Part shown: piece after piece, positions 7,096 to 33,386 of the stretch
Layout: the number at the start of each line of letters is the position of its first letter
How positions within the stretch are numbered: the stretch's first letter is position 1
Source of the DNA: Candidatus Eiseniibacteriota bacterium
Lineage (GTDB): Bacteria > Eisenbacteria > RBG-16-71-46 > DASYSL01
Assembly (NCBI GenBank): GCA_031431875.1
Contig: JANPEF010000113.1
Coordinates: forward strand, 1 to 35,285
Length of the DNA stretch: 35,285 nt
Reading direction: 5' to 3'
The notes under the pieces: model-generated
What the model was told of the DNA's origin: nothing
The model's database searches: none
Seen by the model: the letters and a program-made list of their open reading frames with translations, nothing else
Position numbers and translations under genes: made by a program

Positions 7096-8805
7096 ATGCG
7101 TCGATTCGTCCCGTTCCTCCCGGCTCTCGGCTTCGCGCTCCTCGTCTCCGCGCACCCGGCATTCGCCGCGCCCCTTCCGCCGGCGGATCCCGCGCCGGAC
7201 CTCAAGGCCATCGTGCGCGCGGCCAGCCACCCGGACCTGCGGTGGCCGGCGATCACCGACGTGCGCTCCGAGATCGAGCGCCTCTACGCGCGCCATGAAT
7301 GGCGACCCCTGTGGCTCGACGGCGCGCGCCCGACCGGGGCCGCAAGACTGCTCGTCGCCCGGCTCGCCGCGGCGGACAGCCTGGGGCTCGACCCCGCCGA
7401 CTACGACGGGGCGTGGCTCGAACGCACGGTCGCGCAGTTCGCTCTCGCGGGCGGGACGGTTTCGGCGGAGCAGCGCGCCCGGTTCGACGTGGGGCTCTCG
7501 GTTGCGGCGGCGCGCTTCGTCTCGGCGCTCGCGTGCGGGCGCATCGACCCGGTCACGCTCGATCCGGAGTACGACATTCCGCGCACCTGCCCGGCGGTCG
7601 ACTCGACGGTCGCCGACCTGCGCGACGGCGCGCGCCAGGGCGCGGTGCTCCGCGCCGTGCAGCCGCAGTTCCATCACTACCAGTTGCTCAAGAACGGGCT
7701 TCTCCGTTACCGGGGGCTGGCCGCCGACACGACGCTCGTGCCGATGCCGCCGATGCCGCCCAATGTGCGCCCCGGGGGGACGCTGCATGCCGCGCGCGCG
7801 CTTCGCCACATCCTGCACGCCACCGGCGACCTGGCGAAGGGCAAGGATCCGAAGCCCGCGCGCGACACGGTGTACACGCCCCAGCTGGTCGAGGCCGTCA
7901 AGCGCTACCAGGGGCGGCAGGGTCTCCTTCCCGACGGCGTGTTGTGGCCCCCGACGCTCGAACAGCTCAGCCGACCGTTCAGCGAGCGCGTGCGCCAGAT
8001 CGAGCTGACGCTCGAACGGTGGCGCTGGCTACCGACCACCTATGCCGTCCCGCCGGTGATCGTGAACATCCCCGCGTTCCGGCTGTACGCGTTCAACGCG
8101 CTGCCCGACCGGCGTGAGAGCATGCTGGCGATGGACGTGCTCGTGGGTGCGGCCGTGTCGAATGAGACGACGGTCTTCAGTGCCCCGATGACGCACGTGA
8201 TCTTCCGCCCGTTCTGGGAAGTGCCCGCGGACCTGGCGCAGTACGAACTGGGCCCCCGCACGGAGTGGGACCGCGCGAACATGGAGCGGCTGGGCTACGT
8301 GCTCGTGCGTCGCGACGGATCCGACACGACGGCCCTCGCCCTGACTCCCGGAAACGTCGCGCGGCTGGGCAAGGACCTGCGCCTGCGCCAGCGGCCAGGC
8401 CCGCTCAACGCCCTGGGGCTGATCAAGTTCATGCTGCCGAATCGGCACGACATCTACCTGCACGACACGCCTGTTCCGGGACTGTTCGTCCTCCCGCGCC
8501 GGGACTTCAGTCACGGTTGCATCCGCGTGGAGGATCCGGTCGCACTGGCAGCCCACGTCCTGCGCGGGCAGCCCGGCTGGACTCCCGAGCGCATCCGGGC
8601 GGCGATGGAGTCGGGACAGGACAACGTGCGGGTGGACCTGCCGCAGAGCGTGCCGGTGTTCATCGTCTACGGGACCGCGGTCGCGGCCGAGAGCGGCGAG
8701 GTCTACTTCTACACGGACATCTACAAGCGGGACGCGGAACTCGATGCGTTGCTCAAGAAGGTCGCACCGTTCCCGCGCTCGGGCGCGATGGCCGCCCGGC
8801 GCTGA
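7096..8805 (+). CDS. L,D-transpeptidase, YcbB/LdtD type (scaffold + PG-binding + YkuD)
   Basis: Signal peptide; AVKRYQ..QGL.PDG PG-binding motif; VNIPAF; RQRPGPLNALGLIKFM.PN; catalytic YLHDTP...FSHGCIRV. Confidence 0.92.
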   Translation: MRRFVPFLPALGFALLVSAHPAFAAPLPPADPAPDLKAIVRAASHPDLRWPAITDVRSEIERLYARHEWRPLWLDGARPTGAARLLVARLAAADSLGLDPADYDGAWLERTVAQFALAGGTVSAEQRARFDVGLSVAAARFVSALACGRIDPVTLDPEYDIPRTCPAVDSTVADLRDGARQGAVLRAVQPQFHHYQLLKNGLLRYRGLAADTTLVPMPPMPPNVRPGGTLHAARALRHILHATGDLAKGKDPKPARDTVYTPQLVEAVKRYQGRQGLLPDGVLWPPTLEQLSRPFSERVRQIELTLERWRWLPTTYAVPPVIVNIPAFRLYAFNALPDRRESMLAMDVLVGAAVSNETTVFSAPMTHVIFRPFWEVPADLAQYELGPRTEWDRANMERLGYVLVRRDGSDTTALALTPGNVARLGKDLRLRQRPGPLNALGLIKFMLPNRHDIYLHDTPVPGLFVLPRRDFSHGCIRVEDPVALAAHVLRGQPGWTPERIRAAMESGQDNVRVDLPQSVPVFIVYGTAVAAESGEVYFYTDIYKRDAELDALLKKVAPFPRSGAMAARR

Positions 8806-8808
8806 CGA

Positions 8809-9366
8809 TCAGGGTCGGATCTCGACCGGCGTGCCGACCGGAATGACGCGGTAGAGTTCGCGGATGTCGGCGTCGTCGAGCGCGACACAGCCCGCCGTCC
8901 AGTCGGCCTGCGAGCCACGACCGTGGATCATGATCTCGCCCCCCAGCCGCGTATTCCACGGCGGCGTGGCGCGCGCTTCGCACGCCGCGAGAATGCTCGC
9001 GCATTCCCGGGCGGTGATCAGGCCATCGAGCAGTCCGCGATCGGCGTCGGCCGGTCCCGGGTAGCTGAGCCCCAGCGACAGCGTGAAGCGGCTCTGCGGA
9101 TTCTTCATGCAGACGTAGTACGTCCCCTCGGGCGTGGCGAAGTCCCCCTGCCGCGCCTTGGGGCTCACCGGATCGATGCCGAGCCCGATCCGGTACGTGC
9201 GGATCACCTCTCCCTGCGACAGGAGCTGCAGCTCGCGCTTCGACTTCACGACGACGAGGCTGGGCAACGCGATCGCGGCGGGCAGGGTCACGGAGATCTC
9301 CTCGATCGACGTCGGGGCGGCTGGCGGATCCGTCACGAGCAGGGCGAACCACAGGGCGAGCATCAT
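8809..9366 (-). CDS. L,D-transpeptidase family protein (YkuD; YafK/DpaA-like)
   Basis: VVKSKRELQL, K.RQGD..TPEG.Y, SLGLSYP, IMIHG...DWTAGCVAL; start ATG 9366 within ORF 8809..10005. Confidence 0.88.
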   Translation of the reverse strand: MMLALWFALLVTDPPAAPTSIEEISVTLPAAIALPSLVVVKSKRELQLLSQGEVIRTYRIGLGIDPVSPKARQGDFATPEGTYYVCMKNPQSRFTLSLGLSYPGPADADRGLLDGLITARECASILAACEARATPPWNTRLGGEIMIHGRGSQADWTAGCVALDDADIRELYRVIPVGTPVEIRP

Positions 9367-9368
9367 GC

Positions 9369-9851
9369 TCACGACCCCGGCTCCGCGGCGCGCGTCGAGG
9401 CCATGGCGATCAGCTGCCAGCGGCCGCGGCGCTTCGCCCAGGTCTCGATCCAGGCGAACCCGGCGCGTTCGGGCTTCGCGTCCGCGGCGGCATCCGCGAG
9501 GACGAGCACGACTTCCTTCTGGACGATGACGGTGGCCAGCGTGCCGTCGGCCGAGACGTGGATCACGGGGGCGACTCGATCGTCCCACTTGTGGAACCGC
9601 ACCGCACCGAAATACGCCGTGAAGCGCTGGCGCTGCTCCTCGCGGGTGGGCCGCTTCACCTCGCCGCCGTCGACCATCACGAAGTCGTCGCCGAACAGGG
9701 AGAGCAACAGTTCGACGTTGCGATCCATGTGCGCGTCGCGCTCGAGCGCATGGCGTGCCGCGACCTCGTCCCGGGGCGTCGGGGCGGCGAGGCTGGGCCC
9801 GGCGAGGACGAGGCTGGAAGCCAGGACGACGGAAAGCAGGGTGCGAGGCAC
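9369..9851 (-). CDS. secreted NTF2-like (DUF4440/SnoaL) protein
   Basis: Signal peptide; LFGDDFVMV, IHVSADGTLA and W.K..GRWQLIA are NTF2 hallmarks; AGGAG RBS. Confidence 0.75.
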   Translation of the reverse strand: MPRTLLSVVLASSLVLAGPSLAAPTPRDEVAARHALERDAHMDRNVELLLSLFGDDFVMVDGGEVKRPTREEQRQRFTAYFGAVRFHKWDDRVAPVIHVSADGTLATVIVQKEVVLVLADAAADAKPERAGFAWIETWAKRRGRWQLIAMASTRAAEPGS

Positions 9852-10049
9852 GGGATGTTCTCCTGGGGGTGCGACGGACGATGCTGCCTCCGAGCATCGT
9901 CGAGGCCCCGCCGAACGGCAACCCCAGGGTGCTCCGAAGTTGACAGGTCGGCGTGTGGCCGGCCTTCACTCTTCGGTTATCGGCCTGGCAGGGGGGCTGG
10001 GTCACCCTTCGTTTCGGCGGGTCGAGGCTCGTTCCGGGACGCCGAAGGC

Positions 10050-10535
10050 TCAGTCGTCGCCGACCGCGCCCCCCGCCGGCACCGGCGTGGTGGCGGTTCC
10101 TGCCCGGATCTCGGGATGGCGGATTTCACCGCCGAGTGTGGCCGTCCGGACGAGAACCGCGACGGCGCCCAGGTCCATGATCAGCACGAGGGTCAGCAGC
10201 GAGCCGGGAATCGCACGCCGGCGGAACCACATCAGGCCGAACAGGGCGACCGCGCCCGCGAGCTCGAGGACGATCACGGCGACCTTCGCCGCGTCCTCGT
10301 GCTGCTCGATGCGACGCTCCTCGATTCCGGCGAGGTGCTCGACGCCTTCTTCCGCCGGCTCGCCGCTGAAGAATGCGGGAAGCCCCGCAAGCGCGACCAC
10401 GACCAGCGTCACGAGGGCGAAGCGGCGATAGGCACGACCGGCGGGAAGGAGCGCGAACAGGAGCAGGAGCGCGACCCCGATGCTCCCCACCACCGGCAGG
10501 TGGTTCATGGCGAGATGGAAGTGGACCGGGCTCAT
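10050..10535 (-). CDS. DUF2231-like 4-TM membrane protein with conserved His residues
   Basis: HFHLAMNHLP, SGEPAEE, IEQHEDAA, GGEIRHPE; four hydrophobic segments. Confidence 0.75.
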   Translation of the reverse strand: MSPVHFHLAMNHLPVVGSIGVALLLLFALLPAGRAYRRFALVTLVVVALAGLPAFFSGEPAEEGVEHLAGIEERRIEQHEDAAKVAVIVLELAGAVALFGLMWFRRRAIPGSLLTLVLIMDLGAVAVLVRTATLGGEIRHPEIRAGTATTPVPAGGAVGDD

Positions 10536-10617: not shown

Positions 10618-11070
10618 TCAAGACGCGCGGTGTTCCCCCCGCGAAGGGTGCGTCCGCCCCCATTCCCCGGCCATTCCTGGCGCCCTGCCTTCCAGCGCAC
10701 GTCGCACGGTCGCGACGATCGCGGCGGGAGACGCCGGTTTCGACAGCACGGCCTCGACTCCGCAATCCTCGAAACGTCCCGGCGGCACCCGCTCGCCCTG
10801 CGCGGAGAAGACGATCACGCGCAGAGCGCTGTGCTGCCGGTGCAGCTCCTCGGCGAGGTCGAGACCGCTCTCCTCGCCGAGCCCCAGGTCCACCACGACG
10901 ACACGCAGGGTCGAGGCGCTCTCGCGGATCGCGAGGCGAGCCTCGCTGAGGTTCGCCGCTCCGATCGCCGGCACCGATTCGTGCTCGAGCAAGCGCCGCA
11001 GGGCAGTCCGCACCCCGATGTCGTCTTCGACGAGGAGGACGATCGGCCCCGGGCCCGATGCTGCACTCAC
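10618..11070 (-). CDS. single-domain response regulator receiver
   Basis: VLLVEDD...VVVDLGL...SGLDL...VIVFSA...LSKP; GTG start. Confidence 0.85.
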   Translation of the reverse strand: MSAASGPGPIVLLVEDDIGVRTALRRLLEHESVPAIGAANLSEARLAIRESASTLRVVVVDLGLGEESGLDLAEELHRQHSALRVIVFSAQGERVPPGRFEDCGVEAVLSKPASPAAIVATVRRALEGRAPGMAGEWGRTHPSRGEHRAS

Positions 11071-11317: not shown

Positions 11318-13492
11318 TCAGAACTTGCGCGAGAGCCCGATCGCCAGCGAGTGCGCCGTGTATTTCTGGTAACCGGCGCCCAGGTAGATCGCTGTCGCCG
11401 TGGGTGACGCACCGGCGACGCCCAGGAGCGGGATGTCCTGCGCCGCGAAGTCGTCCACTTTCCATGTGTCGTAGCCGTACTTGCCGATCAGGTCGGTGCC
11501 GTCGGGCAGCTTGTAGTGCGCCTCGAGGCGGCCCTCCTGCCGCAGGTAGTAGGTGTCCGGGAGGTCGATCGCGGTGTTCGTCTCGTTGTCGAGGAGGTAC
11601 TTCACCTGGTCGCGGCTCACCCAGTAGTTGGCGACCAGCTTGAACGAGCGCGGCACGACCTGCCACGTCGACTGCACGAAGCCGAAGTCATTGCGATCGC
11701 GGATGAGCGCCGTCCAGTCCGTGCCGGCCTCGAGGTTTCCGTCGCGGATCGGGATGGTTGTCCCGGCGGTGGTCCGCTCCTGCGACCCCTGATCGGTGTC
11801 GGTTCGCCCGAACCCGTAGCCGCCGGTGAGCGACAGCACGGTCGACGGGGTGTACGCGAGCTGGCCGAGGACCGACCAGCGCTCGTCGTTCTGCAAGCCC
11901 AGGCGCGAATCGAGGTAGTCCGACCGCTGGTAGTCGCCCGAGACCGTGACGTCGAGCTGTTCGTTCACCATGTAGCCGAGCTCGCCGTTCGCGTCCGTGC
12001 GATCCCGATCGGCGACGTCGAAGCGCCGCAGCAACGGGTTCTCGATGTAGACCGTGTCGGGAGCGTCGGCGCGGCGATAGTCCTCGAGCAGGAGCTCGTC
12101 CAGGCGACGGCTCGCGAACGAGGCCCCCGCGGCGGCATGAATGCCGCTCTCGAGGTCGGCGAAGACCTTGCCGCGGATCTCGTTCTCGACGTCGTTCTCG
12201 ACCTCGCGGTAGGTATGCTCCCGCCAGCGGTAGTCATAGCCGAGGACGACATTGACGCCGTCCGCGACGCGCGCGTCCCAGTCGGTGCCCACGGTGATCT
12301 GCTGGTTACCGAAGGGGCGATTGATGAACCCGACGGTGTCGCGGACCAGGGATTGGTCGTACTGCACGACGCCGCGGAACGGGAACTGTTCGGTCTCGTT
12401 GTCGTAGTGCTGCTGACGGAAGCGGACCACGCCCTTCACGCGATCGGTGACCCGGGCCGTGAAGCTGTGGTTCTGCGTGAAGCGGAGGGCGCGCCCGTCG
12501 GTCGAGCGCGCGGTCACGCTGCCGTAGAGCGAGTCGACCGCGGCCGGGCTGATCGCCGAGTTGATGGTGAACGGCAGCCAGGGATCGTCCTGCTCGAGGC
12601 GTGCCAGCCCCAGCGTGCCGGAGTAGCGAAACATCGAGTTGAGCCGGGCGCCGAGGTCGAACTGGGCACGCACCGCGTGGTTGTCCGGGTACAGGTCGAG
12701 CCGGCCCGAGCTGCTGCCGGTGGTCGGCGAGTCCGTGTAGCGGCGCGGGTTGTCCAGCACCAGCGCATCGATCTTGTTGTCGAACCGCGAGTAGCCGACG
12801 AGGGCCCGCAGCTTGACGCCGCCGCGGCCGTAGTTCGCTGCGGCGGACACGTCGGTCATCCGCTGGTTGATCGGCTCGGTGATCTCGTTCGCGTTGGAGA
12901 AACCGAAGCTCATGGCGTACTGCTTCGTGCCCGTGCGCGCACGCTGCTCGGCATTGAGCTCGAGCTGCAACCCGCGGCTGGGCCGCACGCGCAGGCGCGC
13001 GTCGCTGACGTTGGTCCGGTGACTGAGCGGGATGTACGGCGCAACGGCCAGCTCGCTGGTCATCCGGTTGACGTAGCCACCGGGGTCCTCCTGGTTCGCC
13101 CGCTGCAGCGAATCCGGCAGGCGATAGGCTCCCGCCCCCTGGTCGGTGAACGGCGAGCGGGCGATCAGGCTGAACAGGTGCGGCTGTTGCTGGTACGAGC
13201 CGTCGAGCTGCCAGCGGATCCCCTTGTCGAACGACAGCCCCATCGCCTGGTTGTTGAGGAACAGGTCGGTTCCCCAGAGGTTGCCCGCAAAGCTGCCGAC
13301 CTTGCCCGTGACCAGGAAGTTCTCGAGATACGCCCCGTTCGGGAACTCGCCGAACTCCTGCAGCTTCGCCTCGTTCGCGGTCTGCCACCAGTTCTGCGTC
13401 CCGAACTTCACCTCACCCTCGGCGAGAACGACCCGCGGCACGACCAGGGTGCTCACCAGGACCGCCGCGACGAGGAGTCGAATGCACTTCAT
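11318..13492 (-). CDS. mtrB: MtrB/PioB-family decaheme-associated outer-membrane beta-barrel
   Basis: 724 aa; signal peptide; AKLQEFGE, EITEPIN, S.FDN, L..DNP, DLYPDN, ENPLLRRFDVADRDR motifs; C-terminal Phe; directly downstream of the decaheme gene. Confidence 0.92.
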   Translation of the reverse strand: MKCIRLLVAAVLVSTLVVPRVVLAEGEVKFGTQNWWQTANEAKLQEFGEFPNGAYLENFLVTGKVGSFAGNLWGTDLFLNNQAMGLSFDKGIRWQLDGSYQQQPHLFSLIARSPFTDQGAGAYRLPDSLQRANQEDPGGYVNRMTSELAVAPYIPLSHRTNVSDARLRVRPSRGLQLELNAEQRARTGTKQYAMSFGFSNANEITEPINQRMTDVSAAANYGRGGVKLRALVGYSRFDNKIDALVLDNPRRYTDSPTTGSSSGRLDLYPDNHAVRAQFDLGARLNSMFRYSGTLGLARLEQDDPWLPFTINSAISPAAVDSLYGSVTARSTDGRALRFTQNHSFTARVTDRVKGVVRFRQQHYDNETEQFPFRGVVQYDQSLVRDTVGFINRPFGNQQITVGTDWDARVADGVNVVLGYDYRWREHTYREVENDVENEIRGKVFADLESGIHAAAGASFASRRLDELLLEDYRRADAPDTVYIENPLLRRFDVADRDRTDANGELGYMVNEQLDVTVSGDYQRSDYLDSRLGLQNDERWSVLGQLAYTPSTVLSLTGGYGFGRTDTDQGSQERTTAGTTIPIRDGNLEAGTDWTALIRDRNDFGFVQSTWQVVPRSFKLVANYWVSRDQVKYLLDNETNTAIDLPDTYYLRQEGRLEAHYKLPDGTDLIGKYGYDTWKVDDFAAQDIPLLGVAGASPTATAIYLGAGYQKYTAHSLAIGLSRKF

Positions 13493-13504
13493 GATCGTCG
13501 CCTC

Positions 13505-14437
13505 CTAGCGCAGGAAGTACTTGCCGGACGGATGATTCGAACCGTGGATCTGGCTGTGGCAGTTCAGGCACGAGCGGTTGAACAGGCGGTTCGACGCCAG
13601 GTCCGGCTGGTCGTACAGCGTGCTCGGGTGCCGGGTCGCCACGTGACAACGCTGGCAGAGGAAGGGCGTCTTGCTCGCCAGGCTCCGCTGGTTGTTCGAT
13701 CCATGAGGCTCGTGACAGGTGGTGCAGTTCTCGCGCACCGGCGCGTGGTCGAAGAGCATCGGCCCGCGCTTGTCCATGTGGCAGCTCTCGCACAGCTCGT
13801 TGACCGAGTTCGCCTTCAGGTTCTTCGGCGTGGCCGAGCCGTGCGGCTCGTGGCAACTCGCGCAATCCATGCCGCCCTCGAGCAGCGGCATGTGCGCCGA
13901 GCGCGATAGCTGCATGCGCTTGCTCTTGTGGCAGGTCATGCACAGCTCGCTCGTGTTCTCCGCCTTGAGGAGCATCTTGCGCGAGGGGTCCTTCGGCTCG
14001 TGCATGCTGTGGCAATCGACGCACTTCACTCCGCGATCGGAGTGCATGCTCTCCTCCCAGTGCAGCTGGGCGGAGGCCGTGTGGCAGGTGATGCAGGTGC
14101 CGTTCGCCTCTTCGGGCTTCATGCTCTCGAAGCGCTTGATCGACCAGAAGCCGGGGGCGTCCTTGTCGTTGTCGGCGTCGACGTGGAGCGAACCGGGCCC
14201 GTGGCACGATTCGCAGCCGACCTTGCCGTCGACGAGGGCGCTGTCCTCCTCCGCGCGACCGTGACCGGCGAGCCGATACGAATGCTCGATCCCCTCGTGG
14301 CACTCGGCGCACGCTTCGGAACCGACGTAGGCGGCTGTCTCGGTGGTCTGGGAGCCGGAGGGGGTGGAGCGCAGGGCGAACAGCCCGAGAAGCGCTCCGC
14401 CGAAGAGTGTCGCGAGGACCACGGAACGGGACCGCAT
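13505..14437 (-). CDS. mtrA: MtrA/DmsE/MtoA-family periplasmic decaheme c-type cytochrome
   Basis: Ten CxxCH counted (CAECH, CESCH, CITCH, CVDCH, CMTCH, CASCH, CESCH, CTTCH, CQRCH, CLNCH); YVGSE, CHGPG, KRGP..F.HAPV and IHGSNHPSG signatures; GGAGG RBS before ATG 14437. Confidence 0.95.
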   Translation of the reverse strand: MRSRSVVLATLFGGALLGLFALRSTPSGSQTTETAAYVGSEACAECHEGIEHSYRLAGHGRAEEDSALVDGKVGCESCHGPGSLHVDADNDKDAPGFWSIKRFESMKPEEANGTCITCHTASAQLHWEESMHSDRGVKCVDCHSMHEPKDPSRKMLLKAENTSELCMTCHKSKRMQLSRSAHMPLLEGGMDCASCHEPHGSATPKNLKANSVNELCESCHMDKRGPMLFDHAPVRENCTTCHEPHGSNNQRSLASKTPFLCQRCHVATRHPSTLYDQPDLASNRLFNRSCLNCHSQIHGSNHPSGKYFLR

Positions 14438-14473
14438 GCTGTGCTCCTCCTGGACAGGAGTCGGGCCGGGCGG

Positions 14474-14490
14474 CGCAAGGAAAGCGCCGA
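14474..14490 (-). promoter_or_regulatory. putative sigma54 promoter of mtrAB
   Basis: TCGGCGCT-TTCC-TTGCG (GG-N10-GC, with TTGC); predicted start site ~14463, just upstream of the RBS. Confidence 0.55.
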
Positions 14491-14863
14491 ATCCGCCTCC
14501 AACGCACCGAAATCCATCCACCCGGTTGTTCCCGCACGCACAGCGGGGGAGACCAAGCCCGTCGGGGAACGACGAGCAGGAGTGATTTACGGGCGGAGCG
14601 TCCCTGACTGCAACAAGAATCCGAGTTCGGGTGTGGATTTCGTCAAATCGCCCGACCCGGTCGCCCGGTTTCGCTCCGGTGTTCCTTCCACTCACTCCGT
14701 CGCGTGCAATGCCACTGACCGATCATCAAGCATCAGGCGTGCCGCGCGGCCCGGACCGCACTCGTGTTCCTAAGCTGAGCCGGAAGTCATTGTCGTTGAG
14801 TGGGTTGAGCAATCCATCACGATGGGGTACGGGAACCGGGAGGAGTGTCGAGGACGGCCCGCC

Positions 14864-14876
14864 GGACAACCTGTCG
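14864..14876. promoter_or_regulatory. candidate enhancer palindrome GACA-N3-TGTC
   Basis: GGACA-ACC-TGTCG immediately after the activator gene stop; the same motif recurs at 19382-19394. Confidence 0.35.
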
Positions 14877-14904
14877 CGCAGGGTGGCAAGGCGCGACCGC
14901 CGTG

Positions 14905-16335
14905 TCAGTCGACGGCAAAGACTGCCTCGTTCGGGGGATCCCCGTCGTCCGGACCGCCGCGACTGGCCCGCCGGTAGAGCGTGCGGGCCGAGATGCCGAG
15001 GATCCTGGCGGCCCGTTCCTTGTCGCCGTGGCAACGCTCGAGGGTGTCGGCGATGAGGCGTTCCTCGGCCTCGGCAAGCGTGGAGCCGGCGGGCACGAAC
15101 ACCCCGTCGCGCCCCCCGGCGCCCGCGGCCTGTGCAGAGGCGCCCGAGGCGAACGCGGCGAAGCGGAGGTCGCGCGCCTCGAGCATGGGCCCCGGAGCCG
15201 TGACCAGCGCGCGCTGCACGGTGTTCTCGAGCTCGCGCACGTTGCCGGGCCAGGCGTGCGCCGCCAGGACCTCGAGCGCGCCATCGCTCACGCCGACGAG
15301 CGGCGTGGCGCGCAACGAGCGGTGCAGGCGCAGGAAGTGCGCGACGAGCAGCGGCAGGTCCTCGCGCCGCTCGCGCAGCGTGGGTGCGGCGATCTCGATG
15401 ACGTTGATGCGATGGTACAGGTCGCGGCGGAAGCGCCCCTCGCGCATGGCAACCTCGAGATCGGCGTTCGTCGCGGCCACCAGGCGCACGTCGATCGCGA
15501 TGTCCTTCGTGCTGCCGAGGCGCTGCACCATCCCGTCCTGGAGCACGCGCAGCAGCTTCGCCTGCATCGCCGGCGCCAGCTCCCCGATCTCGTCGAGGAA
15601 CAGCGTGCCGCCGTGCGCCAGCTCGAAGCGGCCGCGCTTCGTCGTGGCCGCTCCCGAGAACGCGCCGCGCTCGTAGCCGAACAGCTCGCTCTCGAGCAGG
15701 GTCTCGGGAATGGCGGCGCACGAGATCTTGACCAGGGGTGCCCCCCGCCGCGGCGACTGCGAGTGCAGCAGCTCGGCGATGACCTCCTTGCCCGTCCCGC
15801 TCTCGCCGGTGACGAGCACCGGAACGTCCGTCGGCGCGATCTGGGCGATGGATCGCCGGAGCTCGGCGATCGCGGGGCCCGCCCCGACGAGGCGATCGAG
15901 CCCTTTGCGATCGGCCAGCCGCTCGCGCAGCAGGGCGTTCTCGCTGGTCAGGTTGCGGCGCTCGCAGGCGCGGTGCACCAGCAGGAGCAGGCGATCGCGC
16001 TGGATCGGCTTCTCGACGAAGTCGAAGGCGCCGAGGCGCATGGCCTCGACCGCCCGTTCGACCGACGCGTGCGCGGTCACCAGCAGGACCTCGGGTGGCA
16101 CGGGGAGCGCCCGCGCCTCGCGCAGCAGGTCGATCCCGTCGAGGCCGGGCATCATGAGGTCGGAGACGACGACGGCAGGCGGCCGATCGCGCAGGATCGC
16201 CAGCGCCTCCTCGCCGCTCGCCGCGGTGGTCACTTCATAGCCCGCCTGCTGGAATGTCCGCTCGAGCGCGCGCAGGAGCGCTGCGTCGTCGTCGACGACG
16301 AGCAGCTTCACCCCGGCGCCAACGGCGTCACTCAC
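14905..16335 (-). CDS. sigma54-dependent response regulator (NtrC/AtoC family: REC-AAA+-Fis HTH)
   Basis: LLVVDDD...SDLMMP; Walker A GESGTGKE; ESELFG.ERGAFSGA; Walker B LFLDEIGE; WPGNVRELEN; AARILGISARTLYRR; GTG start overlaps the kinase stop. Confidence 0.95.
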   Translation of the reverse strand: MSDAVGAGVKLLVVDDDAALLRALERTFQQAGYEVTTAASGEEALAILRDRPPAVVVSDLMMPGLDGIDLLREARALPVPPEVLLVTAHASVERAVEAMRLGAFDFVEKPIQRDRLLLLVHRACERRNLTSENALLRERLADRKGLDRLVGAGPAIAELRRSIAQIAPTDVPVLVTGESGTGKEVIAELLHSQSPRRGAPLVKISCAAIPETLLESELFGYERGAFSGAATTKRGRFELAHGGTLFLDEIGELAPAMQAKLLRVLQDGMVQRLGSTKDIAIDVRLVAATNADLEVAMREGRFRRDLYHRINVIEIAAPTLRERREDLPLLVAHFLRLHRSLRATPLVGVSDGALEVLAAHAWPGNVRELENTVQRALVTAPGPMLEARDLRFAAFASGASAQAAGAGGRDGVFVPAGSTLAEAEERLIADTLERCHGDKERAARILGISARTLYRRASRGGPDDGDPPNEAVFAVD

Positions 16336-17872
16336 GGTCTTCTCCCCCGCCGATCCCGCCGGTGGCGCGATCGTCCGGCGGCGAGACGGGCGGCAGTCCG
16401 ATGGTGAACGTGGAGCCGCGGCCCGGCTCCGAGCGGCAGGCCAGCGACGCACCGTGCTCGGTGACGACCTGCCGGACGAACGGCATCCCGAGCCCGGTGC
16501 CGCCGCGCTTCGTGCTGTAGAAGGGGCGGAACATCTCGGCCTGCACCTCGGGTGGCATGCCCACTCCCGTGTCCGCGACCACGCAGGTGACGCGTTCCCC
16601 GTCACGGCGCGTGGTGATCGTGAGGCGCCCGCCGCCCGGCATCGCCTCCATGGCGTTGCGCACCAGGTTGAGGATCGCCTGCCACAGCTGGTCGCCGTCG
16701 GCGTCGACGACGGCGCCGTCGGCGCCCAGGTCGAGCACGAGCGCAACCTCGCGCTGGCCCAGCTCGGGAGCGAGCATGGCGAGGTGCCCGCGCAACAGGT
16801 CGTCGAGCACGACGGGACCGCGCGCGAGCTGGGGTTTGCGCCCGAACTTGAGGTAGTCGCGCACGACGTTCTGGATGCGATTCACCTCGGAGGCGATCGC
16901 GCCCACCGATTCCTCGTCCTCGACCCCGGCCCCGCGCGCGCGGATCGAGTCGCGCAGGAGATCGAGGTTGATGAGGATCGAGGTCAGCGGGTTGCGAATC
17001 TCGTGCGCGAAACGCGCCGACATCACGCCGACCAGGGCCAGGCGCTCGGCGTGGATGCGGTCGTCCAGCACGCGCCGCTGTTCCGTCACGTCGCGGAACA
17101 GGACCCAGACGCCGAGCGCGCGATCGGCGGTGTCGCGGACCAGTGTGTAGCTCGCGTCCACCCACACGGCCGCGCCGTCACGCCGGGTCAGGCTGAGCTC
17201 GGGCGTGCGCACGTGGCCCTGCGACGTGAGCTCCGCGAGGAGCGCCTCCTGTGCCCCCTCCGTCCACCGTCCGCCCGGCAACAACCGGCCGATCGAGGCC
17301 CCGCGCATCTCCTCGGGGGTCCAGCCGAACATCTCCTCGGCGCCGGGATTCCAGTGCTCGATGCGGCAGTCGAGGTCGCACAGGACGATCGCGTCCTGCG
17401 AACTCTCGAGCACGCTCTCGAGGTGGCGCTCGACCTTGACCCGGTTCTCCTCCTGGCGGGCCTGGCACATCGTGCACGTCGTCTGGCCGTAGAGCGAGAT
17501 CACCTGGTTGAACGCCGTGTCGAGGTCGCGTTGGAGCGCCGCCCACTCGTCGGGCTCGACGTGATCCGCCAGAACTTCGCGCATCGCCTCACGCCCGAGC
17601 AGGAGCGAGAGCACGGCGTCGGCCTGGTTGCGCTCGACGCCCGGGCGGCGCAGCTCGATGCGGGCCATGCCGATCGCGAACGGCAGCGCGGCGGCACCGC
17701 CCTTGTGCTCGAGCGCGGCGAGCGCCCCCCGCAACGCCTCCTTGTGGCGACTGCGCCGCTGCTCGGGCGTGCCCGCGCGGCTCGCCAGGTCGGAGCGGTC
17801 GAGCCGCTCCTCCCAGCGATCGAGGATCGCAGGCTCGTGCTCGCGCAGGAGCTGGTCGAGCGTGGTGGTCAT
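16328..17872 (-). CDS. soluble PAS sensor histidine kinase (RsbRD_N-like N-terminus, CxxC, PAS, HisKA, HATPase)
   Basis: LLREHEPAILDRWEERL N-terminus; TTCTMCQ; PAS WNPGAEEMFGW...RDVTE; FAHEIRNPL; NLVRNAMEAM; DTGVG; GTGLG; no TM segment. Confidence 0.93.
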   Translation of the reverse strand: MTTTLDQLLREHEPAILDRWEERLDRSDLASRAGTPEQRRSRHKEALRGALAALEHKGGAAALPFAIGMARIELRRPGVERNQADAVLSLLLGREAMREVLADHVEPDEWAALQRDLDTAFNQVISLYGQTTCTMCQARQEENRVKVERHLESVLESSQDAIVLCDLDCRIEHWNPGAEEMFGWTPEEMRGASIGRLLPGGRWTEGAQEALLAELTSQGHVRTPELSLTRRDGAAVWVDASYTLVRDTADRALGVWVLFRDVTEQRRVLDDRIHAERLALVGVMSARFAHEIRNPLTSILINLDLLRDSIRARGAGVEDEESVGAIASEVNRIQNVVRDYLKFGRKPQLARGPVVLDDLLRGHLAMLAPELGQREVALVLDLGADGAVVDADGDQLWQAILNLVRNAMEAMPGGGRLTITTRRDGERVTCVVADTGVGMPPEVQAEMFRPFYSTKRGGTGLGMPFVRQVVTEHGASLACRSEPGRGSTFTIGLPPVSPPDDRATGGIGGGEDRE

Positions 17873-18075
17873 TCCGCCGGCGCCTCGGTCGCCTGCAACA
17901 ACGCGAGCAGGTAGAACACGGTGCCGAGCAGGATGAGCCCGACGCCCACGCCGGCGAAGACGATGAACGACAGCGGATGGAGGATGTTCAGCGTCACGGC
18001 TTCGACGACGAGGCCGAGCAGGCAGAGGAACGCCGCGAAACGGATGCGGCCCTCGACGGGGCGCCTTCCGGTCAT
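17869..18075 (-). CDS. small two-TM membrane protein (68 aa), unknown function
   Basis: MTGRRPVEGRIRFAAFLCLLGLVVEAVTLNILHPLSFIVFAGVGVGLILLGTVFYLLALLQATEAPAE; ATGA overlaps at both ends. Confidence 0.8.
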   Translation of the reverse strand: MTGRRPVEGRIRFAAFLCLLGLVVEAVTLNILHPLSFIVFAGVGVGLILLGTVFYLLALLQATEAPAE

Positions 18076-18692
18076 GGCCGGGCCCCCTTCCACATCTCGA
18101 GTTGGTCGACGTTGTGCACGTCGTGGACGAAGTCGTGGCAGCCCGACGACAGGCACGACAGCCGATTCGCCTTCATCGCCGCCATCGTCGTGTCGGTTTC
18201 GGCGTGGGCGTCGTTCCCCTCGAACGAGCGTGCGCCCGCGTGGCAGTGCAGGCACTCGCGGTTGTTGTAGGGCTCGTACAGCTTGATCGTGTCGGGCAGC
18301 GTGCCGAAGTAGTTGATCGCCATGTGCCTGAGGCCGCCGATCTTCGCCTTGACGTCCCCGTAGAGCGCGTACGTCGTGTGGCAGGTGAAGCACGCCTCGT
18401 CGACGTTCATACGATTGTTCTGCACGTGGCTGGCGGGGACGTACTCGGAGTCATCGATCTTCAGGCTCTTCCCGTAGGGCTCCATGATGTGGCACGAGAG
18501 GCAGAACTCGGTGCGCTTCGACTTCTCGACGTGGGCGCCGAAGCCGACGGCGAGCGCCAGTGACGGCAGCACGAACAGGGCCAGGAACGCCAGAATGCGG
18601 CCGCCGCGATCGCGGGTGATCCCCGGGCGCACGATGAACGCGAGCAACAGCACGGCCGCGACGGCGATCAGGCCGACGAGTTCGAAGCTCAT
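18072..18692 (-). CDS. NapC/NirT/NrfH-family (CymA-like) membrane-anchored tetraheme cytochrome c
   Basis: Two N-terminal hydrophobic helices; EFCLSCHIM (CxxCHxM), CFTCH, AKIGGLRH, CLHCH, and CLSSGCH (CX4CH) followed by VH; AAGGAG RBS. Confidence 0.88.
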   Translation of the reverse strand: MSFELVGLIAVAAVLLLAFIVRPGITRDRGGRILAFLALFVLPSLALAVGFGAHVEKSKRTEFCLSCHIMEPYGKSLKIDDSEYVPASHVQNNRMNVDEACFTCHTTYALYGDVKAKIGGLRHMAINYFGTLPDTIKLYEPYNNRECLHCHAGARSFEGNDAHAETDTTMAAMKANRLSCLSSGCHDFVHDVHNVDQLEMWKGARP

Positions 18693-18725
18693 GCGGGCTC
18701 CTTCCGGTGAGGGAACCGGGGACGG

Positions 18726-19148
18726 CTACTTCGTCGTCGTGGTCGTCGTCGTCTTGGTGTTGGTGGCCTTCGTCTTCTGCGCCTCGAGCCACGTCGCCAG
18801 CGTGGTCAGCTCGGCCTCGGTGCCGCGAAACTTGCGCGAGTGCTTCTCGCCCTTGATGGCCTCGGTCTTCATCAGGTACTTCGACATCCAGGGGGCCTTC
18901 CGCTCCAGCCCGACGGCCGACAGGTCCGGCGGCTTCTTCTCGGACTTCTCTTCCTTCGCGTCGGTGGCCTCGGCCTTCTTCTTGGCGATCGACTGCCCCT
19001 GCATCGTGTGGCAGGTGTTGCACTTGTTCTCGAGGAACAGGGCCTTCCCGTCCTTCGCGGCGGCTGCGGGCTTGTCCTGGGCGGCGGCGGCGGCCACCAG
19101 GACGGCGCAGGCGATCGCGGCGGCGGTGATGATGCGGGTCGTGGACAT
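18726..19148 (-). CDS. periplasmic monoheme class I cytochrome c, Lys-rich
   Basis: Signal peptide; DGKALF..NKCNTCH; PPDLS; C-terminal helix ELTTLATWL; GGAGG RBS. Confidence 0.88.
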   Translation of the reverse strand: MSTTRIITAAAIACAVLVAAAAAQDKPAAAAKDGKALFLENKCNTCHTMQGQSIAKKKAEATDAKEEKSEKKPPDLSAVGLERKAPWMSKYLMKTEAIKGEKHSRKFRGTEAELTTLATWLEAQKTKATNTKTTTTTTTK

Positions 19149-19229: not shown

Positions 19230-19246
19230 CGCAAGATCCGCACCGA
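19230..19246 (-). promoter_or_regulatory. putative sigma54 promoter of the cytochrome c-napC-kinase-regulator operon
   Basis: TCGGTGCG-GATC-TTGCG; same TCGG...TTGCG frame as the mtrA promoter. Confidence 0.45.
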
Positions 19247-19381
19247 TCGCACACCGCAAGCGGCAGCCCTGGGCTTTGCCCTTCCCGCCGGCGGCCAAAT
19301 GCCGTCTGGCCCATTCGTTGCGTCACTCCGCCGCAGGGACCAGCGCTTCCGGTCCGGACGGGACTTACGGCGTCCACACCA

Positions 19382-19394
19382 TGACAGCTTGTCA
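19382..19394. promoter_or_regulatory. palindromic regulator site TGACA-GCT-TGTCA in the divergent cytochrome c/hemN spacer
   Basis: Perfect 5-bp arms in a locally AT-rich stretch, about 140 bp upstream of the 19230 sigma54 motif and about 40 bp before hemN. Confidence 0.5.
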
Positions 19395-19433: not shown

Positions 19434-20834
19434 ATGGAAAGCCAGCCCATGAGGCGAACCCAGGACCTGATCCGGCGCTACGACGTGCCGGGTCCCCGGT
19501 ACACGTCCTACCCGACCGCGGTCTCGTTCCACACGGGCTTCGGCGAGGCCGCCTACCGCGCCCGGCTGGCCGGGGCTGACGCGCAGGCTGACCAACCGCT
19601 CTCGCTTTACGCGCACCTGCCGTTCTGCGAGGCGCGGTGCCTCTACTGCGGCTGCAATGTGGTGATCAGTCCGCACCGGGAGGTGGCGCAGCCCTACCTC
19701 GAGCGCCTGATCCGCGAGCTCGAGCTGCTCGCCGCCGCCCTGCCCCACCGCCGCCTTCTGTCGCAGATGCAGTGGGGCGGCGGAACGCCGACCTACTACG
19801 GGATCCCGGACCTGGCCCGCCTGTTCGCCGCCGTGAGCGAGCGCTTCAGGTTCACCGCCGACGCCGAGATCGGCATCGAGGTCGACCCGCGGGTCACCTC
19901 GCACGAGCAGATCGACGCGCTCGCGGGGCTCGGGTTCAACCGGATCTCGGCCGGCGTCCAGGACTTCGAGCCCGCCGTGCAGCAGGCGATCGGGCGGATC
20001 CAGAGTTTCGCGCAGACGAAGGAACTGGTGGAGCGCGCCCGCGCGGCAGGATTCCGCTCGGTGAACCTCGACCTCATCTACGGGCTGCCGCTGCAGTCTC
20101 CCGCGGGGTTCGGCCGCACGCTCGAGCACATGCTCGCGATCCGCCCGGAGCGCGTCGCGGTGTATTCGTTCGCGTTCGTGCCGTGGCTCAAGGGCCACAT
20201 GCGACGCATCGACGAGGCGAGCCTGCCGGGACCGGAGCTCAAGCTCGAACTCCTCGCGCTGGCCTATGACGCGTTCACTGGCGCGGGCTACCGCGCGATC
20301 GGCATGGACCACTTCGCGCTGCCCGGGGATGACCTAGCGAAGGCCGCCGACGCCGGCACGCTGGGCCGCAACTTCATGGGCTACACGGTGCAGAGCGCGC
20401 GCGACCTGGTGGGGATCGGCATCTCGGCGATCGGCGACGTGCAGGACGCGTTCGTCCAGAACGTGAAGAAGCTGCCCGCCTACTACGCCGCGCTCGATGC
20501 GGGCCGCTTCCCGGTCGAGCGTGGGTTCGCGCTCGACGACGACGACCGGATCCGCCGCTTCGTGATCGGCGAGATCATGTGCAACGCACGCCTCGACTTC
20601 GCCGCCGTCGAGGCGCGTTTCGGCGGTGCGTTCGAGCGCGACTTCGCCGCCGAGCTTGGCGCGCTGGGCGCGCCCGGCGGGCCGCTCGCCGACGGGCTGC
20701 TCGAGCGCGTCCCGCGCGGGCTGCGCGTCACCGAGCGCGGACGCCCGTTCGTCCGCGTCGTCGCGATGGCGTTCGATCGCCACCTGCGCGACGCGGCCGC
20801 GGGCGACCGCCCGGTGTTCAGCCGGACGGTGTGA
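19434..20834 (+). CDS. hemN: oxygen-independent coproporphyrinogen III oxidase (radical SAM)
   Basis: GPRYTSYPTA; CEARCLYCGC (CxxxCxxC); WGGGTP; IGMDHFA; RNFMGYT; C-terminal FSRTV; alternative start at 19449. Confidence 0.95.
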   Translation: MESQPMRRTQDLIRRYDVPGPRYTSYPTAVSFHTGFGEAAYRARLAGADAQADQPLSLYAHLPFCEARCLYCGCNVVISPHREVAQPYLERLIRELELLAAALPHRRLLSQMQWGGGTPTYYGIPDLARLFAAVSERFRFTADAEIGIEVDPRVTSHEQIDALAGLGFNRISAGVQDFEPAVQQAIGRIQSFAQTKELVERARAAGFRSVNLDLIYGLPLQSPAGFGRTLEHMLAIRPERVAVYSFAFVPWLKGHMRRIDEASLPGPELKLELLALAYDAFTGAGYRAIGMDHFALPGDDLAKAADAGTLGRNFMGYTVQSARDLVGIGISAIGDVQDAFVQNVKKLPAYYAALDAGRFPVERGFALDDDDRIRRFVIGEIMCNARLDFAAVEARFGGAFERDFAAELGALGAPGGPLADGLLERVPRGLRVTERGRPFVRVVAMAFDRHLRDAAAGDRPVFSRTV

Positions 20835-20844
20835 GGATGCGGCC

Positions 20845-22224
20845 ATGACCACGCCTGCCCTCTCGACCCCGCCGCGGCGCGTTGCCGTCGTCGGCGGCGG
20901 GATCTGCGGCCTGGCGCTCGCCCACCGGCTGCTCGATCGCGCGGATGTCGCCGTGTTCGAGGCCGGCCCACGCGCGGGCGGCCACGCCACGACGGTGCGC
21001 AAGGACGGGTACCTGGTCGAGGCGGGGCCGAACGGCTTCCTCGATCGCAATGCCGGGCCGCGCGAACTCGCCGCGGAGCTCGACCTCGCCGCCGAGCTGA
21101 TCGAGGCGCGCCCGGAGGCCAGGCGGCGGTACGTCGTGCGCGGCGGCCGCCTGCACCGCGTTCCGGATTCGCCGTCGATCCTGCTCACCTCCGGCCTGCT
21201 CTCGCCGCAAGGAAAGCTGCGGCTGCTGCTCGAACCGTGGGCGCGGCGGCGGCCGGCGGACCGCGAGGAGACCGTGCACGAGTTCGCGCAGCGGCGCATC
21301 GGCGCCGAGGCCGCCGACGCGCTGGTCGACGCGGCGGTCGCCGGCATCTCGGCGGGCGACAGCCACACGCTGTCGCTGCCGGCGGCGTTTCCGCAGATGG
21401 ACGCGATGGAGCGCGAACACGGGGGCCTGATCCGCGCACTCGCCGCGCGGCGGCACGGCGGCATCGGGGCGCCGCGCCTGCTCGCCTTCCGCGGCGGGAT
21501 GGCGCAGATGGTCGACGCGCTCGCGGCCCGCCTCGGCGGCCGGCTCCACACGGGCGCGCGCGTCGAGTGCGTCACGGCGGGCGCGGCCGCCGAGGCCCGG
21601 TGGCGGCTCGCGTTCGCCGATGGTTCGACGCACGACGCCGACCATGTCGTTTTCGCGACGCCGGCCCACGCGGCGGCGACGATACTCGCCGGACTCGACC
21701 CCGCGCTCGGCGGCAGCCTCGCGGCCACGCCCTACTCGGGCGTCGCTGTCGTCGCGCTCGCCTACCGGGAAGCCGACTTGCCGCGACCGCTCGACGGCTA
21801 CGGCTACCTGGTGACGCGCGGCGAGGGGCTGGCCACGCTGGGCGTGGTCTGGGAGTCGACGCTGTTCGCGGGTCGCGCCCCGGCAGGACATGCGCTCCTG
21901 CGCGTCATCCTGGGAGGCGCGCGCGACCCGTCCATTGCGACGCGACCCGAGCCCGAGGTCATCGCGCTCGCCCGCAGCGAACTGGCGCGGGTCCTCGGAC
22001 TGACCGCAAAGCCCGAGCGGACATGGGCCTTCGGGTGGCCCGGCGCCATCGCGCAGTACGTGCGCGGCCACCGCGAACGGGTGGCCCTGACGCGCGCAGC
22101 CATCGGGCGTCACGCGGGGCTCTCGCTGTGCGGCACGGCGTACGACGGCGTCTCGTTCGGCGCCGCGATCGACGCCGGGCGCGCGCACGCCGACACGGTG
22201 CTTGCCGGCGCGACGGACGCATGA
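20845..22224 (+). CDS. hemY: FAD-dependent protoporphyrinogen oxidase (HemY type)
   Basis: VVGGGICGL Rossmann motif; EAGPNGFL; RRYVVRGGRLH; GISAGD...LS..AAFP; DGYGYLV; AIAQY..GH. Confidence 0.92.
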   Translation: MTTPALSTPPRRVAVVGGGICGLALAHRLLDRADVAVFEAGPRAGGHATTVRKDGYLVEAGPNGFLDRNAGPRELAAELDLAAELIEARPEARRRYVVRGGRLHRVPDSPSILLTSGLLSPQGKLRLLLEPWARRRPADREETVHEFAQRRIGAEAADALVDAAVAGISAGDSHTLSLPAAFPQMDAMEREHGGLIRALAARRHGGIGAPRLLAFRGGMAQMVDALAARLGGRLHTGARVECVTAGAAAEARWRLAFADGSTHDADHVVFATPAHAAATILAGLDPALGGSLAATPYSGVAVVALAYREADLPRPLDGYGYLVTRGEGLATLGVVWESTLFAGRAPAGHALLRVILGGARDPSIATRPEPEVIALARSELARVLGLTAKPERTWAFGWPGAIAQYVRGHRERVALTRAAIGRHAGLSLCGTAYDGVSFGAAIDAGRAHADTVLAGATDA

Positions 22225-23189
22225 CCCGCCACGTCGTCCTCCTCACCTACGGCGAACCGCCCGCGGCACGCTTCATGCCGCAGCTCGCCTACTCGTGGCG
22301 CATCCTGTGGGGGCTCACGCGTCGCGTCGCCCCGATTCCGCCGTTCGTCCTGCCAATCATCGCGCTGGCGCGGGCGCGCTTTCGCGTCGGCCTGTGGCGC
22401 CAGCACGCGTACACGTCGCCGATCGAGGCGATCACCGGCGCGCAGGCGCTGGCGCTCGAGCGTGCGCTCGCCAGGGGCACGGACGGGCCATGGCGCGTGC
22501 ACGTCGGCTACGAGTTCCGGCAGCCCCTGCTCGCCGACGTGCTCGACGCGATCCCGGCTGGCGAACCCGTATCGATCGTCCCGATGTACGTCGCCGAGTC
22601 CGAGTTCACGCACGACATCGCGCGCACCCAGCTCGCGGCGCGTGCGCCGGTCGCGCCCGCCGCCGCCGCGCGGGTCGTGCCTGGCCTCGACGCCGAGGTG
22701 CTCGGCGAACTCTCCGCCCGTCACGTCCTGGCGCAGCTTGCCATTCGCGGCGTGACGCCGGGCGCCGACTGGGGGCTCGTCCTCGCCGCCCACGGAACCC
22801 TGGTCGATCCGCCGCGGCCGATGAACACGGGACGCCTCGCCACCGAGGCGGTCGCCGACGCGATCGAGCGTCGCCTGGCACCGGTGTTCGGGCGTGTGCA
22901 GCGCGGCTGGCTCAATCACACGGTGGGTGGGACCTGGACCTCGCCTGCGGCAGATGTCGCCGTGCGCGATCTGGTCGCCGCTGGGTTCCACCGCGTGGTG
23001 TACTTTCCCTACGGCTTCCTCGCCGACAACGCCGAGAGCCAGCTCGAGGGTCGCCTGCTTCTCGCCGCGCAACCCGGGCTTTCTGCCGTCGAGCACCTGC
23101 CCTGCCTCAACGAGAATGCCGACCTGGCCTCCGCACTGGCCGACGCTGTCCGGCGCACGCTCGACCGCCCGGCCAAAGGAGGGGCCTGA
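22221..23189 (+). CDS. hemH: ferrochelatase (divergent HemH family)
   Basis: VVLLTYGEP, SPIEAIT..QA.AL, VGYEF.QP, VPMY, LAAHG (catalytic His), W..P, GFLADNAESQLE, PCLNE; ATGA overlap with hemY. Confidence 0.8.
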   Translation: MTRHVVLLTYGEPPAARFMPQLAYSWRILWGLTRRVAPIPPFVLPIIALARARFRVGLWRQHAYTSPIEAITGAQALALERALARGTDGPWRVHVGYEFRQPLLADVLDAIPAGEPVSIVPMYVAESEFTHDIARTQLAARAPVAPAAAARVVPGLDAEVLGELSARHVLAQLAIRGVTPGADWGLVLAAHGTLVDPPRPMNTGRLATEAVADAIERRLAPVFGRVQRGWLNHTVGGTWTSPAADVAVRDLVAAGFHRVVYFPYGFLADNAESQLEGRLLLAAQPGLSAVEHLPCLNENADLASALADAVRRTLDRPAKGGA

Positions 23190-23194
23190 CCGCC

Positions 23195-24322: not shown

Positions 24323-24344
24323 GTCGCCAACGCAGGAGGACACC

Positions 24345-33379: not shown

Positions 33380-33386
33380 GTCCGCT

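Follow-up and report, generated by a model that had tools for sequence, protein, structure and literature searches.

The Mto locus of Sideroxydans lithotrophicus ES-1 (MtoA, MtoB, MtoD and ImoA, or 'CymA') brings together a decaheme cytochrome c and an MtrB-type barrel, without MtrC, with a monoheme cytochrome and a NapC/NirT-family tetraheme bearing a CXXCHXM motif. Bis-His ligation of the heme is the special feature of MtoD (PMC13390432), and ImoA is 54-64% identical to NapC/NirT (PMC9600427). The CymA-MtrCAB system of Shewanella also has MtrA and MtrB together with a quinol-linked NapC-family tetraheme, CymA, in which the Met of CXXCHXM is missing (PMC13390432). 'Group 2' porin-cytochrome clusters from karst metagenome-assembled genomes (MAGs) are reported to pair a small decaheme with a porin of 25-36 strands; six of eight have ImcH- or NapC/NirT-like genes and some have petBC, the hosts are mostly heterotrophs and electron export was suggested (PMC13264449). 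Here we analyse a cluster of seven genes on the minus strand (positions 11318-19148) of contig JANPEF010000113.1 of Candidatus Eisenbacteria, a stretch of 35,285 nt that we call the window and that is the entire contig (C113) of a genome of 3.75 Mb, 98.45% complete.

On balance, and with modest confidence, we read this cluster as a porin-cytochrome chain without MtrC, through which menaquinol electrons reach soluble extracellular acceptors at low oxygen, and which the neighbouring sigma54 pair switches on. The conduit itself is ordinary, and the noteworthy parts are a partnered NapC clade, its spread and a traceable redox regulon. We propose more tentatively, as a wider generalisation that is somewhat less likely than not to hold, that MtrC-less conduits in soil Acidobacteriota and Eisenbacteria, many of them with barrels missed by current MtrB models, have as their standard inner-membrane end a heterodimeric NapC-family quinol oxidoreductase so far undescribed, in which a two-helix tetraheme is joined by a 68-aa membrane subunit dedicated to it. 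In this wider proposal, one eisenbacterial lineage would also use a new thiol-redox kinase of globin-CxxC type, with a sigma54 activator, to control conduit and heme synthesis together, as one low-oxygen regulon. The outcome is a compact and testable gene set, with predictions for the subunit interface and for the operator sites.

Composition of the conduit and of its genome

The original prediction, made from the letters alone, had placed seven genes on one strand. All were recovered as open reading frames (ORFs), including the tiny protein with two transmembrane segments, and family scans of 39 window ORFs bore out the monoheme c, the 10-heme MtrA/DmsE protein, the kinase and the NtrC-type activator. 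The decaheme (13505-14437, minus strand; 310 aa, without a long N-terminal extension) has 10 CXXCH motifs, belongs to the MtrA/MtoA/DmsE family (TIGR03508, 249.9 bits for a cut-off of 192.2) and has MtrA as its best match in the PDB (6R2Q_A, E = 5.7e-58). The adjoining gene (11318-13492, minus strand) encodes an outer-membrane beta-barrel of 724 aa with a signal peptide and a C-terminal Phe, which PF11854 assigns to the MtrB/PioB family (232.9 bits for a gathering score of 23). The cluster has a GC content of 0.65-0.73, similar to the remainder of the contig, and likely consists of two transcription units, with a 468-bp gap that holds a sigma54-like site before mtrA. RNA data (three runs of one study, with small word shares) gave contigs that span genes and gaps alike at low depth and are mixed with other organisms' activator genes; hence, expression was not demonstrated.

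The window had been described as free of MtrC/OmcA and of DMSO-reductase subunits, and this extends to the whole genome. TIGR03507 has no match in it and is above its cut-off in 0 of the 201 genomes of the phylum, with weak sub-cut-off heme-motif matches in 68 of them. Among the 30,846 six-frame ORFs of the genome, 10 have at least two CXXCH and only this MtrA has ten. An MtrC partner was rejected on these grounds. DmsAB were not found genome-wide either: the five PF00384 matches, at four places, were read from sequence and context as selenocysteine FdhF-like, a signal-less orphan, ActB-like and NuoG-like. As none is an exported DmsA/DmsB molybdoenzyme, we also rejected a DmsE/DmsAB role. The locus thus differs from the Shewanella system and matches, as had been recognised, the Sideroxydans parts list: MtrAB homologues, a monoheme c and an inner-membrane quinone partner in one cluster, with no MtrC. 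It differs from Mto in the sigma54 pair inside the cluster and in a host without the autotrophy markers that we tested.

The genome encodes RpoN, two futalosine menaquinone genes, two heme-copper oxidases (one of the cbb3 type, the other aa3-type) and three cytochrome-assembly matches, including a ccm-like cluster of the kind that the original prediction had proposed to look for. RuBisCO, NiFe hydrogenase and carbon monoxide dehydrogenase (CODH)/prismane were not found in the genome; the reductive tricarboxylic acid (rTCA) cycle was not searched. There are also genes that we take, from their motifs, to be NrfAH-like and ACIII-like, and two monoheme ORFs with what we presume to be a Cyc2-like N-terminal motif (G000:C24:39958-41499 and C162:14708-15871). 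Two further ORFs with an in-frame TGA are likely selenoproteins, a UshA-like tetraheme with a PCG* motif (G000:C82:61176-62360) and the FdhF-like molybdoenzyme (C135:1355-3244).

A NapC-family tetraheme with a predicted partner

The tetraheme (18072-18692, minus strand) belongs to the NapC/NirT/NrfH superfamily. It matches PF03264 at 42.4 bits (threshold 24.1) and has a membrane anchor made of two N-terminal hydrophobic helices, four heme sites (three CXXCH and one CX4CH) and the quinol-site Lys. It falls far under the NrfH, NapC and TorC equivalog cut-offs (TIGR03153, 40 vs 134 bits; TIGR02161, 25 vs 311 bits). In an alignment of 44 tetrahemes, Met70 of CXXCHXM, Lys117, His123 and the histidines 89, 105, 151, 163, 186 and 190 are all invariant, as are C180, C185 and H186 of the fourth heme site (44/44 rows). 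Over 52 ORFs scored, this site reads CX4CH in 46 and CX2CH in 5, a distribution that supports a true fourth heme. The best PDB sequence match is NrfH of Desulfovibrio vulgaris (2J7A/2VR0, E = 0.0067), where Met49 and Lys82 of 2J7A correspond to Met70 and Lys117. In contrast, the position of Asp89 is occupied by His123, and the genome's own NrfH-like protein likewise has a His there. Other differences from NrfH are the second helix, the extra invariant His163, a possible ligand of the last heme, and the lack of an adjoining nrfA.

The tetraheme had been called CymA-like. The family assignment stood, and CymA orthology did not: membership in the CymA, NapC or NrfH subfamilies was rejected because the equivalog models remain below cut-off, there are two helices instead of one and Met70 is invariant. 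Judged from these sequence features, the protein is no CymA and represents a NapC clade of its own, marked by two helices. It also departs from ImoA, which is close to NapC/NirT, whereas the window protein scores 25 bits on NapC models, reads CX4CH at one heme site, has two N-terminal helices and comes with a predicted partner.

The candidate partner is a 68-aa protein with two hydrophobic segments (17869-18075, minus strand), for which the scans of window ORFs gave no family match. A profile built from 26 rows located it at 18 places in 17 of the 201 phylum genomes (15 strong and three weak). All 15 strong places are directly 3' of a tetraheme gene, and the tetraheme itself occurs at 17 places in 16 of the 201 genomes; the other two tetraheme places abut contig ends. 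Among 43 other tetraheme loci (see below), 42 have the small gene directly behind the tetraheme gene and the single miss stops at a contig end. There are 775 clusters at 50% identity that match the profile, and the neighbours of the protein in the Atlas are unnamed acidobacterial clusters. The predicted complex of the two proteins scored 0.63, when the best of three controls scored 0.00; the mark for this score is reached by 116 of 157 solved pairs and by 2 of 215 mismatched ones, counts that are rough here since custom alignments were used. At least 95% of contacts are shared between runs, and the partner has a pLDDT of at least 81. Close to the predicted quinol site, residues 57-67 and 120-124 take part in the modelled interface, as do both helices. 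No solved complex of this kind is known to us, and packing may come easily to hydrophobic helices. Together, the model, the profile and the synteny support the view that the 68-aa protein binds the tetraheme as its predicted partner subunit, of which we found no description in the open-licence literature.

The monoheme cytochrome (18726-19148, minus strand) is a periplasmic class I cytochrome c according to PF00034 (33.6 bits) and to fold searches. Its ligation is likely bis-His (H47/H103), because all 16 rows have H103 and no Met is conserved, several members having no Met at all after the heme motif. This recalls MtoD, but the sequence is only weakly MtoD-like (E = 1.5 with 4XXL), the fold match (Z 7.1, rmsd 2.8, 73 residues aligned) is tied with other class I cytochromes, and neither fold nor profile searches could single out MtoD among these. 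In most acidobacterial loci, this position is taken by another kind of monoheme, similar to c6.

Distribution of the five-gene core

We scanned GTDB with the tetraheme and obtained 44 loci, in a pattern-limited search that is no census. One of them, L031, is 99% identical to the window over the tetraheme gene and also belongs to Ca. Eisenbacteria, in line with the predicted Eisenbacteria-like host. The other 43 (42 from Acidobacteriota, one unclassified) include a monoheme in 40 cases, an intact MtrA in 36, a barrel in 39 and all five core genes in 34. The five-gene core (MtrA, barrel, monoheme c, NapC-family tetraheme and 68-aa protein) is therefore conserved over two phyla. The seven-gene order was seen only in close relatives (L031/L075, split by a contig break, and the fragments L148 and L150).

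The original prediction had set the layout apart from those of Shewanella and Sideroxydans. Uniqueness of the architecture was not supported: the core is common in the fetched acidobacterial loci, and the class is in print, both as Sideroxydans Mto and as the karst clusters of decaheme, porin and NapC/NirT genes (PMC13264449). These 'Group 2' clusters may include the same module as the window, although the section on them names no partner subunit, monoheme ligation or regulator (PMC13264449). Homologues of PioA/MtoA in Acidobacteriia have also been counted before (PMC10654088). We found no paper on an Eisenbacteria Mtr system in the open-licence literature.

Acidobacteriota are abundant in soils. 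In them, a 2018 survey counts no CymA homologue (PMC6295460) and a 2022 survey reports no inner-membrane partner beside acidobacterial mtrCAB (PMC8805035). A candidate inner-membrane partner for acidobacterial conduits can now be named. The acidobacterial-type loci have two kinds of barrel, the second of which was matched by TIGR03509 in 0 of 5 cases scanned and by PF11854, weakly, in 1 of 4. It comprises likely barrels of 680-830 aa 3' of DmsE-family decahemes in L037-L074 (e.g. L038:7029-9539 and L039:7398-9479), mostly missed by both models. As many associated barrels escape the Pfam and NCBIfam MtrB models, screens based on these undercount them.

Within the phylum of the host, barrel homologues occur in 60 of the 201 genomes, and we fetched the mtrB neighbourhoods of 46 of the 59 other matching genomes, many of them on short contigs. 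A Rieske and cytochrome b pair lies near mtrB in 13 of these 46 loci, mostly with a nonaheme. Rieske, cytochrome b and nonaheme c genes, some with 13-, 17- or 18-heme proteins, were noted at the mtrAB loci L082, L085, L095, L098, L099, L100, L103, L106-L108 and L113 of Eisenbacteria and at the acidobacterial L035. These loci indicate that inner-membrane modules are interchangeable on one conduit. A quick MtrA tree (77 rows, from the fetched loci only and with no MtoA, PioA or DmsE references, hence uninformative on direction) unites the Eisenbacteria proteins, if with weak support (81), and sorts them roughly by host family. Module decay was observed twice: at L149:2200-2510 monoheme, tetraheme and partner are reduced to remnants and both DNA motifs are retained, and at L128:11750-12700 (G161) only the 3' end of mtrB is left, followed by a NorC-like gene.

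The sigma54 pair and its candidate DNA sites

The kinase (16328-17872, minus strand) has no hydrophobic segment or membrane helix and is thus cytoplasmic. It combines an RsbR-N/globin-like domain, a CxxC motif (C133/C136), PAS, HisKA and HATPase domains. In the model, residues 12-152 can be aligned to 3ZTA, a non-heme globin domain of the stressosome (Z 14.9, rmsd 2.5, 136 aligned), an assignment based on one VIA-align row, a weak Pfam RsbRD_N match (E = 0.054) and Atlas leads under 0.9; Foldseek with the full kinase returned kinase cores only. Both cysteines, C133 and C136, are kept in all 17 rows (P0121, 98% identical, was excluded). A heme-binding globin was rejected since the N-terminus has no invariant His. 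The activator (14905-16335, minus strand) has the receiver, sigma54 AAA+ domain with GAFSGA loop and Fis helix-turn-helix (HTH) of NtrB/NtrC-type pairs, and with an H-box kinase, RpoN and candidate -24/-12 sites that match the consensus, the system is of the NtrC type. The kinase differs from RsbR and NtrB systems in uniting the globin-like domain, CxxC and PAS. This combination matched no named family above cut-off, and no paper on a regulator of this kind was found in the open-licence literature.

The kinase N-terminus occurs in 9 of the 201 phylum genomes (one match weak), and orthologues of the activator are 52-64% identical, when paralogues within the genome reach at most 46%. We inspected the kinase contexts of eight genomes. 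G000 and G085 have the arrangement of the window; G161 has hemN, then kinase, activator and an mtrB remnant; G065 and G185 have kinase-activator-osmC-tetR-monoheme-tetraheme-partner-citrate synthase; G028 has ccoI-ccoS-kinase-activator-receiver-usp-usp-hsp20; G158 has kinase-activator-receiver-tetraheme c; and G150 is interrupted by a contig end. Because it adjoins cbb3-oxidase and stress genes in relatives, the pair is likely a low-oxygen regulator that is not dedicated to the conduit. Sigma54 pairs at 5 of the 43 acidobacterial loci are unrelated to it (activator identity of 39-44%, no globin-CxxC domain).

Two copies of a palindrome, GACA-N3-TGTC, accompany the cluster and are candidate activator-binding sites. 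The first (14865-14875) lies behind the activator gene, about 130 nt upstream of a sigma54-like -24/-12 site that faces mtrA (14730-14744, minus strand; two mismatches to the consensus, kept in L075). This motif was first noticed in the window, L129 and L131, which leaves L133 and L134 as independent tests. Behind the activator it is exact in 4 of 6 orthologous loci (window, L129, L133 and L134), has one mismatch in L131 and is absent from the degenerate L128, though present before hemN there. A sigma54-like site follows 85-130 nt past the palindrome in the window, L129, L131 and L133. At the contig end in G085 (L075:11300-11440), about 130 nt of AT-rich DNA stand in place of the palindrome upstream of mtrA, an insertion or an assembly join.

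The second palindrome (19383-19393) is in the divergent gap between hemN and the monoheme gene, with two opposed sigma54-like sites, one facing the monoheme gene (19231-19245, minus strand; three mismatches) and one facing hemN (19307-19321, plus strand; two mismatches, one in L031 and L149). The palindrome is exact, and both sites are kept, in L031 and L149, and the palindrome copies of the window, L031, L149 and L128 have differing spacers and flanks. The likely co-regulated operon beyond the gap (19434-24788, plus strand) encodes hemN, protoporphyrinogen oxidase, a ferrochelatase-like protein, nnrS and usp (TIGR00538 and TIGR00562 above cut-off; PF00762, PF05940 and Usp matches).

Across the genome there are 52 exact copies of the palindrome, of which 10 fall outside roughly called genes, or about 0.009 per 310 nt of intergenic DNA. 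Over 74 mtrA genes, it lies upstream in 2 of 5 kinase-bearing genomes (window and G028) and in 0 of 69 others. In G028 the kinase is on a different contig from mtrA, and a sigma54-like site with three mismatches follows about 150 nt past the palindrome. The -24/-12 consensus behind these calls is the one we assume to be standard, with a background of 0.08 sites of at most two mismatches per 700 nt. A strict scan of 77 mtrA upstream regions gave 15 matches at this level when about 6 were expected, and one match in 21 monoheme genes, not that of the window. Hence, sigma54 control is not general for these conduits. The claim that the cluster has its own embedded sigma54 regulator was supported as regards control, for which palindrome and sigma54-like sites give evidence at the sequence level. 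It was too strong as regards ownership, since orthologues stand beside cbb3 maturation, Usp/Hsp20 and heme genes and the palindrome also serves the hemN side.

Direction of electron flow

In the export reading that we favour, the tetraheme and the 68-aa protein would form a four-helix membrane unit, with menaquinol oxidised at the heme-1 site (CXXCHXM Met70, Lys117 and His123). Electrons would traverse the periplasm directly or via the monoheme and, judging from the MtrAB structure, diffusible acceptors such as chelated Fe(III) or humic quinones would then meet the last heme of the barrel-enclosed MtrA at the surface. The kinase may sense the redox state via its CxxC/globin-PAS input and phosphorylate the activator, which would bind GACA-N3-TGTC and open the sigma54 promoters of mtrAB, of the cytochrome-kinase-activator operon (an autoregulation) and of the heme-synthesis operon.

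Export to soluble acceptors appears more likely than uptake because the tested autotrophy markers (RuBisCO, NiFe hydrogenase and CODH) were not found, because hemN, nnrS and usp are neighbours of an anoxia type, because formate dehydrogenase-N genes lie beside 10 of the 43 homologous loci, and because MtrAB without MtrC is reported to reduce soluble Fe(III) chelates (PMC7198977) and ImoA to oxidise quinol in vivo (PMC9600427). We also count for export that the class of Thermoanaerobaculum aquaticum, for which Fe(III) reduction is reported (PMC6137239), carries the same five-gene core (L032, L060, L063 and L071). These arguments bear on the question of whether MtrC-less 'MtoAB' matches in heterotrophs stand for iron oxidation or for electron export.

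Several observations weigh on the other side. The MtrC-less MtrAB systems with a phenotype, MtoAB and PioAB, take electrons up, and the cbb3- and aa3-type oxidases, the presumed ACIII-like cluster and the two presumed Cyc2-like ORFs are compatible with uptake. The 10 formate-dehydrogenase loci come from related lineages and are not independent. The barrel scores 189.7 bits on TIGR03509, below the cut-off of 240.05, such that the predicted MtrB/PioB porin was upheld by one of the two models. A NapC-like gene is nearby in only 5 of the 46 other Eisenbacteria mtrB loci, and G004 has the trio of monoheme c, NapC-family tetraheme and partner without an MtrB match; hence, the trio can stand apart from mtrAB. 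As to regulation, three of the loci served to define the palindrome, it is missing upstream of mtrA in three genomes that have the kinase, any of the 19 sigma54 activators of the genome could bind it, and its hemN-side copy would sit downstream of the hemN promoter. Finally, the potential of MtoD (+155 mV) is a misfit to a simple relay (PMC13390432).

We consider it unlikely, if far from negligible, that the chain runs inward as in Sideroxydans Mto, such that MtrA would take electrons from Fe(II) or reduced humics and these would pass via the monoheme to a terminal oxidase and via the tetraheme to quinone (lithoheterotrophy at low oxygen). The parts list equals mtoD-mtoA-mtoB-imoA, including a monoheme that is likely bis-His, the genome has a cbb3 oxidase, the kinase orthologue of G028 adjoins cbb3 maturation genes, and Cyc2 homologues are reported in Eisenbacteria (PMC9769843). 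However, no carbon-fixation marker was found among those tested (which did not include rTCA), the monoheme resembles MtoD no more than it resembles other class I cytochromes, and the formate dehydrogenase neighbours fit this direction poorly.

It is rather improbable that the trio is a general quinol dehydrogenase that feeds periplasmic reductases (e.g. NrfA-like or NO reductase), with mtrAB as one co-regulated outlet or independent of it. Such a role would explain the separate candidate promoter before mtrA, the nearby nnrS and NorC-like genes, the trios without adjoining mtrAB (G004, G115, G168, L034, L044, L066 and L067, several on short contigs) and the other or missing inner-membrane modules beside most Eisenbacteria mtrAB. 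Yet the trio accompanies MtrA and barrel in 34 of 43 loci, with several MtrA clades and often in one operon, and the NrfA-like gene of the genome has its own NrfH-like partner. That the two-component system is a bystander brought in by rearrangement, without control of the conduit, is very improbable: the kinase is in 0 of the 43 acidobacterial-type loci, is rare in the phylum and lies away from mtr genes in two genomes, but it adjoins module genes in 5 of 8 genomes, in two gene orders, and the palindrome, which follows the activator in 5 of the 6 orthologous loci, also precedes mtrA in G028, where kinase and mtrA are unlinked.

Neighbouring genes in the window

A stand-alone receiver domain (10618-11070, minus strand; PF00072) is encoded behind mtrB. 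It is 40% and 34% identical to the receivers of L133 and L134, respectively, and similar receivers lie 3' of the activator in G028 and G158. Behind it is a four-helix membrane protein (10050-10535) with a weak DUF2231 match (E = 0.004), and a gene resembling it is near the kinase in G150. Farther away, the window encodes an AbiEi/AbiEii type IV toxin-antitoxin pair (31530-33415; PF09952 and PF08843), and, at 7096-10005 and 25405-27549, two L,D-transpeptidase (YkuD) genes and a secreted protein with GHL15-like, CBM and FlgD-Ig domains.

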